Made by a program: the position numbers and the translations under genes
Notes under the pieces: generated by a model
The model's input: only the letters and a program-made list of their open reading frames with translations
Told to the model about the DNA's origin: nothing
Databases searched by the model: none
Assembly: GCA_034780895.1 (NCBI GenBank)
Contig: JAUZTB010000098.1
Coordinates: forward strand, 104,136,944-104,200,943
DNA from: Rhynchobatus australiae
Taxonomy: Eukaryota
Length of the DNA: 64,000 bases
Direction of reading: 5' to 3'
Shown: positions 26,601 to 29,600 of the stretch, in pieces
Layout of the letters: each line of letters opens with the position of its first letter
Numbering within the stretch: the first letter of the stretch is position 1

Positions 26601-29600
26601 GCAAATTTTTCAAACCTAATTCATGGTATGTATGCTCAATTACTCTGGCAGAAGCTTTAACTTGTAACTGCTCAAAGCAATCCACCAAGGAATGTAAAGC
26701 AAACAAAATCATGAAGGTTCTATTTTCTAAGAATCCCTTTCATCCCAGTCAAAAGAAAAATTAATTTCTGTGAACCTCCCAATATAAACTTTCTGCCATA
26801 CAGTAACAAGAAAAGTTTCCACCTTTCATTGGTCCAAAATTAGAATACTGATGATTGTAATTTCCAAAATCATTGTAGTTACCACCACCACCAAAATTTC
26901 CTAAGGTTAAAAAAAATGCAGATTACTATACGAGTATTTTATTCAAGCCCTTCATTATCTCTATTGTCCTTTGCTGTGGTTATGAAAAGATTTCAATGTC
27001 ATTTGTAAATTCACAACCACAAATCTTTCCACATTTTCTTTTGCACAGCAAATTCTCCCAAAAAAATATTCACCATCATTGCAAAGACTAAAAAGGCAAA
27101 AATCAAAACCCAAGTTGGACATTTATCATAATTTCTAATGGCCTGGAGTCCATACATGCAACAATGATTAATTCCTCAGAGATTTAAGATGCATAAATAT
27201 AACCTAGAAGAACCAACAGAATTATTTATTCCACAAGGAAAGACCGCAAATTCAATTGTTCCACCTACCCTCAACCCTAACACAGTTATATAACTGAAAA
27301 GTGCTATCCCATTAATGGTGGGAAAACAACTTTAAAGAACTGTCCCAAAACAGGTGTTATCTTTGGTGCATGGAAGCTACCTAATGACGAGAGACGAAGA
27401 AGCTAGTAAGGGGAGAGAAAACTGATTACAAGAAAATTGACAAATAATATCAAAGCTTGGGAAGAGGGTACCCAAATAAGTTTGGGACTCCTGGAGGATG
27501 AGACAGGAGAATCATTAATAGGAAACTAGGAAAAACTTAAATACTTTGCATCTGTCTTTGTGGAGAATGACACTACAAATATCCAAATGTAAAGATGGAT
27601 CAGTTTTAAAAAAGGGGAAAAACTTTTAATCCTTATGATGGATGAACCATTGGAAAAACCAATGAGACAAAACACAGGTAAGTCACCGGGGTGCAATGGT
27701 CTACAGTAGTTGAAGTTTTTCCAAAATTGACCGAGATTCTAGAAAATATAAGCAAATCCGAAAACTGCAAATCTGATGATTCCCTTGTTCAGGAAGGGAG
27801 AGAGACGAAAAGCAGGACAAGCTAGTTACCATAACATCTGTTGATGGCAAGATGCTAGAATCCATAAATTAAGAAATAACTAATCACTGAGAGAAGTACA
27901 ATGCAATCAAACAGAGTCAACATGGTCTTATGAAAGGATACCCAAGTTGTCAAATTTGTGAGGGCTCTTTTGAGAATGCAACAAGCAGAGTCAATAGAAG
28001 GGAAACTATAGATGTAGTATATTTTGATTTCCAGAATGCATTTGATAAGCTGTAAAGAAAGCTGGTGCATAAAATAAGAGCTGACAGTATTGAAGCCTGG
28101 TAAATCACAGAAGACAGAACAAATGTCTTTATCATGCTGGAAGTATACAACTCTTAGAATGCCGGAAGGATCAGTCCTTAGCCTTCAACAATTTAACTAT
28201 ATTGATGACTCAGAGAAGAGTATAGAACACAAGTTTCCCAAGTTTGCTAATGACATAAAAATAATTGGAGTGCATTTTTGTAATGCGAACATTTGGACTC
28301 AGAATATACATAAGCTGAATGAATGGGTAAAATGATGGCAAATGGAATTTTATCTAAGAAAATGTGAAATCATTCACTTTAGTAAGAGAATTCAAAAAGG
28401 CAGGTATTATCTAAACAAAGACAATGTAAATGAGTAGAGGGATCTAGCTGTTCTTGTGTATGAAATAAAGTTAACATGCAGCTAGAGCAAGCAGTTAAGA
28501 CAAATGGGACATGAGCCTTCATTGCAAAAGGTTTGAATTTAGAAATGAAGAGTTGTTACCATTGCGCAGGATGTTGACGAGGCCACATCTAGAGTACTGT
28601 GTACAGTTGTGGTTCCCTTTGTCCCTACTGGTCTGCCTATACCAGCACTGGAGGTAGTCCAAAAGAAATTCACTAAGCTAATTATAGGGATGCGAGGGCT
28701 GTCCTATCAAGCAGTCAGAGTTATACAGCAAAGAAACTAGCTCTTCTAACTCTCCATGTTCATGCCAACTTTATGGGCATCGACACTGCCCATACTAGAA
28801 CCACATTCTTCTATACCTTGCTCATTTATGTGCATTCTGAATGTCCATTAAACAGTGCTTATACCCGATTTCAACACCACCTCTGGCAGGGAGTTTCAGA
28901 TTTCTACTTCAGTATGACAACTTTTCCCTCAAACCCCTGCAAAACTTCTTCCTCTCACCTTAAACCTATGCACTCTTGCTTTTGATACTCCTACCGGAGG
29001 GAAAAAAAATTACCTACGTCTCTTACAACTTTATACTCTTCCTTTAGATCACCCCTCAGCATTCTTCCCTCCAGGAAATACCCAGTTGAATTTAACCTCT
29101 CTCCATGACTGAAGTCCTCCAATCCAGGCAACATCCTGGTGAATCTTCTCTGCACTCACTCCAGTGCAATCACATCCTTCCAGTAGTGTGGTGATCAGAA
29201 CTACACACAATAGTCAAAGCACAGTCTAATCAATGTTTTGTAAAGTTGCAACATAACGACCCATTCTGTGCCCTAACCAATTAAGTCAAGCATGCTATAT
29301 TCTTCTTCACTACCCTATCTGCCCAGGTTGCCACTTTCAGGGAACTATGAACTTGAACCCCAGGGTCTCTGTTCACAACATTCCTAACACCTTACCATTT
29401 CCTGTACATTTTCTACATCTTATTTGACTTTCCAAAATGCATTATCTCACACTTGCTGGGATTAAATTCCATCTGCCAACACCATCAGGATGGAGTTAAG
29501 AAATGAGAATACTATTCTTTGGTTTAATAAAATGAGGGATTACCTTCAAAAACTTTTGTCTTTAGAGGTGACAGGGCTGATGTCGAGATGTTTACACTAA

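Follow-up and report, generated by a model that had tools for sequence, protein, structure and literature searches.

C-terminal variants of hnRNP A2 cause muscle disease in people. Import signals of the PY type (PY-NLS) have a consensus that ends in R/H/K-X2-5-PY, and PMC9050844 reports that human hnRNPA2 remains nuclear when PY alone is deleted; deletion of residues 301-319 moves the protein. Mammals also have naturally occurring A2b/B1b isoforms, in which exon 9 of the low-complexity domain is skipped and the protein shifts to the cytoplasm. According to PMC11954880, exon 9 adjoins the M9 signal and A2b keeps D290, so this is not the exon that is broken in the gene described here. Our literature search on nuclear localization of elasmobranch hnRNP A2 returned no paper on that topic. 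A separate body of work concerns assemblies: PMC9516821 documents false indels and partly missing exons in earlier vertebrate assemblies.

The window, by which we mean the whole 64,000-nt stretch of Rhynchobatus australiae DNA that was analysed, carries on its minus strand a gene that, judged by its sequence, is hnRNP A2/B1 (Table 1). In the RRM2 exon, identity to chondrichthyan hnRNP A2/B1 is 90-100%, compared to 76-77% for A1/A3-type matches, and reaches 99-100% for several rays and sharks, including Pristis pectinata (P0005, XP_051871750.1) and Narcine bancroftii (P0006); all of these values come from the best 120 of 1264 matches. P0005 is matched in tblastn by all coding exons, those of RRM1 included. 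Its Gly-rich exons are 94-100% identical to those of the window, and the M9 part agrees at 29 of 30 residues. The two RRMs are closest to A2/B1, the Gly-rich low-complexity tail has the R(S/N)RY end, and the 17-residue last exon is as in relatives. CBX3 lies head to head with hnRNP A2/B1 in conserved synteny. In the window, chromo- and chromoshadow-like exons, found with short motifs and on that basis presumably CBX3/HP1-like, lie on the plus strand at 51523, 53727, 58018 and 62098 (within 51523-62130), head to head with the hnRNP A2/B1 gene.

Two further features of the gene were noted. A GT-AG intron (23243-23600, minus strand) starts 23 nt past the stop codon, with GTAAGT at 23599 and an acceptor at 23244; mammalian HNRNPA2B1 has a similar arrangement, with an intron in its 3' UTR. 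In addition, a 13-residue match to the N-terminal extension of P0005 lies at 42050-42097 on the minus strand, which is a possible alternative first coding exon.

Table 1. Features of the hnRNP A2/B1 gene and of the break in its M9 exon (window coordinates)
Feature	Position	Strand	Basis
Coding exon, RRM1 first part	41595..41708	-	tblastn to P0005; splice sites
Coding exon, RRM1 second part	40905..41051	-	tblastn to P0005; splice sites
Coding exon, RRM2	38327..38537	-	99-100% identity with hnRNP A2/B1 of rays and sharks; splice sites
Coding exon, RRM2 end	36993..37094	-	tblastn to P0005; splice sites
Gly-rich coding exon	35222..35296	-	tblastn to P0005; splice sites
Gly-rich coding exon	35070..35132	-	tblastn to P0005; splice sites
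Gly-rich coding exon preceding the M9 exon	30480..30563	-	tblastn to P0005; splice sites
M9/PY-NLS exon, first 89 of expected 120 nt	26812..26900	-	protein, structure-sequence and boundary comparison
Candidate cryptic donor GTG/GTAACT, exon end 26883, phase 1, in frame	26877..26885	-	6 of 9 matches
Base giving Tyr (Asn in relatives), 35 nt away from the junction; an error or a private variant	26847	-	reads, X1 contig
Candidate cryptic donor AAG/GTGGAA, exon end 26823, phase 1, in frame	26817..26825	-	4 of 9 matches
TTT overlap at the junction; ~39 nt inferred missing (31 exon nt, donor, one TTT)	26812..26814	-	read ends
Likely ordinary intron start, open in frame to the TAA solely through the junction	26761..26811	-	sequence; reads match up to 26814
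Last coding exon (17 residues), stop 23625-23623, then GTAAGT donor in 3' UTR	23600..23675	-	sequence

The M9 exon begins at 26900, after ttaaccttag, and encodes 30 residues down to 26812. Beyond this point the frame continues for 16 unrelated residues and ends at a TAA at 26763-26761, just as a previous sequence-only reading of this DNA had described. Of the residues before the break, 29 match a stretch of the human hnRNP A1 M9 contained in PDB entries 7bx7, 7zj2 and 2h4m (chain C), the last of which is the transportin complex. The window differs from the human hnRNPA2 and hnRNPA1 M9/PY-NLS in that the R..PY half is absent. With the boundary taken from P0005, the exon measures 89 nt in the window versus an expected 120 nt, leaving 31 exon nucleotides missing.

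We compared this exon across sharks, rays and chimaera, as had been suggested, using 53 annotated (as opposed to experimentally shown) chondrichthyan proteins. Fourteen came from the RRM2 search and 39 from clusters, one of which contributed 15 of its 35 members; the rodent A3 protein P0016 was excluded. The M9 exon is present in 41 of the 53, from 16 species, and the continuation GN[FY]GGRNMG is kept in every one of the 41. The window thus lacks 31 exon bases plus the donor. R..PY is kept in 36 of the 41, and the five proteins without PY are all from Pristiophorus.

The missing end was not recovered elsewhere. In six frames of the window, no GPYG-type piece was found near the gene, nor was an inverted or displaced copy, and searches of the source assembly (which may itself be incomplete) by DNA, protein and degenerate pattern did not find the exon end either, in agreement with the earlier statement that no separate Gly-rich PY exon was found between 23.7 and 26.8 kb. 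The DNA search gave one match, the window itself; the protein search gave three, namely the window and two paralogous hnRNP A1/A3-type exons; the degenerate pattern gave none. The R-x2-5-PY of this M9 signal is thus absent from the assembly. The two paralogous M9 exons (L003:1500-1625 and L004:322-444, the latter on an unplaced GC-rich contig of 1505 nt) have an intact GPYG and a GT donor.

Donor sites around the break were scored against the consensus CAG/GTAAGT. Donors of the seven upstream coding exons match at 5-7 of 9 positions, versus 4, 5 and 4 of 9 for three sites near the break, which bears out the observation that this exon, unlike the others, lacks a strong donor. Also confirmed on the sequence were the in-frame (phase 1) position of AAG/gtggaa at 26823 and the TGA that would be created if the last exon were joined to T/gttact (26808) or T/gtatgg (26802). 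A further site, GTG/GTAACT at 26883, had been overlooked; at 6 of 9 it outscores AAG/gtggaa (4 of 9).

Sequencing reads provide a more direct view of the junction. Four of 17 listed runs were used: the contig set X1 and the raw-read runs X15 (sample S10), X16 and X17 (both sample S11), all of which carry the species label of the best match to the window. The other 13 (X2-X14), which comprise relatives and one more contig set from this species among others, were left out. From a sample of 1-4% of each raw run, 26 reads were aligned, 22 of them at an identity of at least 99%; five were partly aligned and three continued into unlike sequence (one of eight in X17). Read intervals were solved from depth in 34-nt bins and are inferences rather than printed reads, and X15 was solved with two 151-nt reads fixed at 26534 and 26552. 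Seven of these reads reach the break, X16 and X17 counting as one sample. No insertion, joint or loose end was listed at the break, where a listing requires three reads per run.

In the plus group of X17, the unique solution contains a 122-nt read at 26812-26933. X16 yields reads 26678-26814 (137 nt) and 26665-26814 (150 nt), each from the only solution that includes no more than one short read; the 150-nt read is weak evidence, two other X16 reads being of the same length. For X15 there are 19 solutions. All contain a read at 26782-26893 (112 nt, or 151-39), none has a full-length read crossing the break, and the solution that includes a 151-nt read also includes 26712-26814. The minus group of X17 is ambiguous, with lengths of 132 + 110, 130 + 112 or 151 + 91 nt. 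The last is the simplest arithmetically, combining a read at 26683-26833 across the junction with a 91-nt read ending at 26811, and would mean that the window's form is present in a living animal. When the splits were compared by hand, 132 + 110 best matched the X17 counts (two partly aligned reads, one unlike) and 151 + 91 did worse, also in mate balance. One X17 split likewise yields a 112-nt spanning read.

Reads from below thus stop at 26814 and one from above at 26812, bracketing the TTT; this is the pattern produced when reads carry additional sequence and the two sides share 3 nt. A spanning read of 112 instead of 151 nt indicates that the extra sequence is ~39 bases. The sum of 31 exon nucleotides, a 5-nt GTAAG-type donor start and TTT is also 39, although we noticed this sum only after the 39. 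Mates placed across the break have mean spans of 361-572 nt per group (pairing assumed), and the missing piece is therefore short and not kilobases long. Independent reads disagree with the window at the junction: five or six of the seven touching the break are shorter than 149 nt, versus one of 16 interior reads elsewhere (Fisher P = 0.003 or 0.0005, three edge reads being excluded; the values are optimistic owing to mates and shared samples). Short reads arise from other causes too, since one X15 read of 81 nt is unrelated to the break.

These data suggest that a piece of ~39 bases, its position set by read ends inferred from binned depth, is likely missing at 26812-26814. It likely consists of the exon end and the donor, a content deduced from the comparisons above. 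Mapping reads across 26812, as had been proposed, shows where they leave the window's sequence. It supplies the refuting evidence named earlier, reads containing the missing GG..R..GGPYGG, only indirectly, since the additional sequence is deduced from read ends rather than read letter by letter. An intact allele likely exists in both S10 and S11, and the deletion is on that account not fixed in the species.

The sequence-only reading had offered two explanations for the break. The first, a lineage-specific deletion rescued by the weak donor AAG/gtggaa to give a PY-less hnRNP A2, now appears very improbable. The donor is in frame, the annotation of one sawshark includes a PY-less form, and such a protein could be viable, given that human hnRNPA2 stays nuclear without PY alone (PMC9050844). 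By the same token, loss of PY may be less drastic than had been implied. Against this explanation, GPMK is joined to GNY in none of the 53 annotated proteins, the donor falls below its competitor at 26883, and reads from both samples, the same species by label, leave the window's sequence at 26812-26814, where a deletion on every chromosome would have them continue.

The second explanation, a local assembly collapse, holds up insofar as an assembly fault is supported; the piece concerned is small (~39 nt) and not a long collapse. We considered a longer event in which 26813 to ~27390 exists twice and whatever lay between the two copies, the exon end included, was lost during assembly. In its favour, the 578-nt X1 contig that starts exactly at 26813, next to an uncovered hole at 26750-26812, is twice as deep as its neighbour (12.8 above the break versus 6.14 below). 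However, raw depth summed over the three runs shows no doubling (~3.9 below, 3.0 above), the mates of clipped reads lie only a few hundred bases off, and the DNA search of the source assembly had its single match. Such a collapse is improbable.

A more serious competitor is a real allele, rare or heterozygous in the assembled animal, in which a ~39-nt microhomology deletion removed the R..PY motif and the donor. We regard this as unlikely, though well short of negligible. The product of such an allele would likely arise by exon skipping, by splicing from one of the cryptic donors (26883, 26823) or by intron retention with the stop at 26761, the other allele being normal. If so, and the chance is a minor one, a wild ray would be segregating an allele that loses the R..PY half and the donor yet keeps the amyloid-prone NYNDFG core. 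The TTT overlap at the junction is what a microhomology deletion would leave. The X1 contig end at 26813, where short pieces are absent and depth changes twofold, is also compatible with it, as is the X17 solution with a full read across the junction. Isoforms that skip the exon are annotated in seven relatives, suggesting that loss on one allele may be tolerated, and the Tyr at 26847 could share the haplotype. However, no read unambiguously shows the window's junction (none of the 19 X15 solutions, neither X16 read), a heterozygous bubble should by our reasoning stop the X1 contig at 26812 and not 26813, and the exon end is kept in all 41 relatives that bear the exon.

An assembly misjoin, by comparison, probably accounts for the break in the M9 exon of hnRNP A2/B1, and the animal itself most likely does not have this break. 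The assembly would have joined two sequence ends at a shared TTT, where a contig ended in poor coverage, and dropped ~39 bases. In that case the animal would have an ordinary hnRNP A2/B1 gene, with a 120-nt M9 exon that ends in the GGRNMGGPYG stretch of its relatives, is spliced in phase 1 onto the exon at 23675 and carries a normal PY-type import signal.

A misjoin is favoured by a nearby Tyr/Asn difference, the N runs, the contig number and the documented false indels. At 26847 the window encodes Tyr (HQYS), and the X1 contig and three of three reads encode the Asn conserved in relatives; QYSN occurs in none of the 41 exon-bearing proteins. Besides the break, this is the only other difference listed within the 1001 nt compared. 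The window contains 11 N runs and the source assembly comprises 81,522 contigs. The false indels of short-read vertebrate assemblies (PMC9516821) offer a close parallel, with a conserved exon partly missing, an odd base nearby and a fragmented assembly. The errors described there are tied to GC-rich 5' regions and were found by comparing the same individuals, whereas the region here is AT-rich overall and the reads compared were matched by species label. X1 may be the assembly's own source and so is not independent. Several points run counter to a misjoin: the X1 contig end at 26813 with its depth step is as compatible with a heterozygous bubble as with a drop in coverage, the two spanning reads could have the window's form and be short through trimming, and real deletions, too, are marked by a 3-nt overlap.

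If the misjoin is true, the result matters solely as a correction: the assembly will mis-annotate hnRNP A2/B1 and is unfit as support for loss of the PY signal. If instead the allele is real, it would be a natural experiment, testing what share of the M9 exon is dispensable on one chromosome.

Several variants of this exon are annotated in relatives. Isoforms that skip the whole M9 exon occur in seven shark and ray species (P0007, P0012, P0013, P0128, P0133, P0138, P0140, P0155); such skipping loses the import signal and the NYNDFG core alike, in contrast to mammalian A2b. The Scyliorhinus torazame model P0008 continues past GGPYG into VGKL..., from which it appears that the exon end is mis-modelled in another assembly too. 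In Pristiophorus (P0011, P0156-P0159), GGSHG replaces GGPYG and the M9 exon has several other changes; among the 16 species examined, this is the sole PY-less form. It may be genuine natural variation, an additional copy or an error, and a search for a PY-less hnRNP A2 would do better to start from this sawshark protein.
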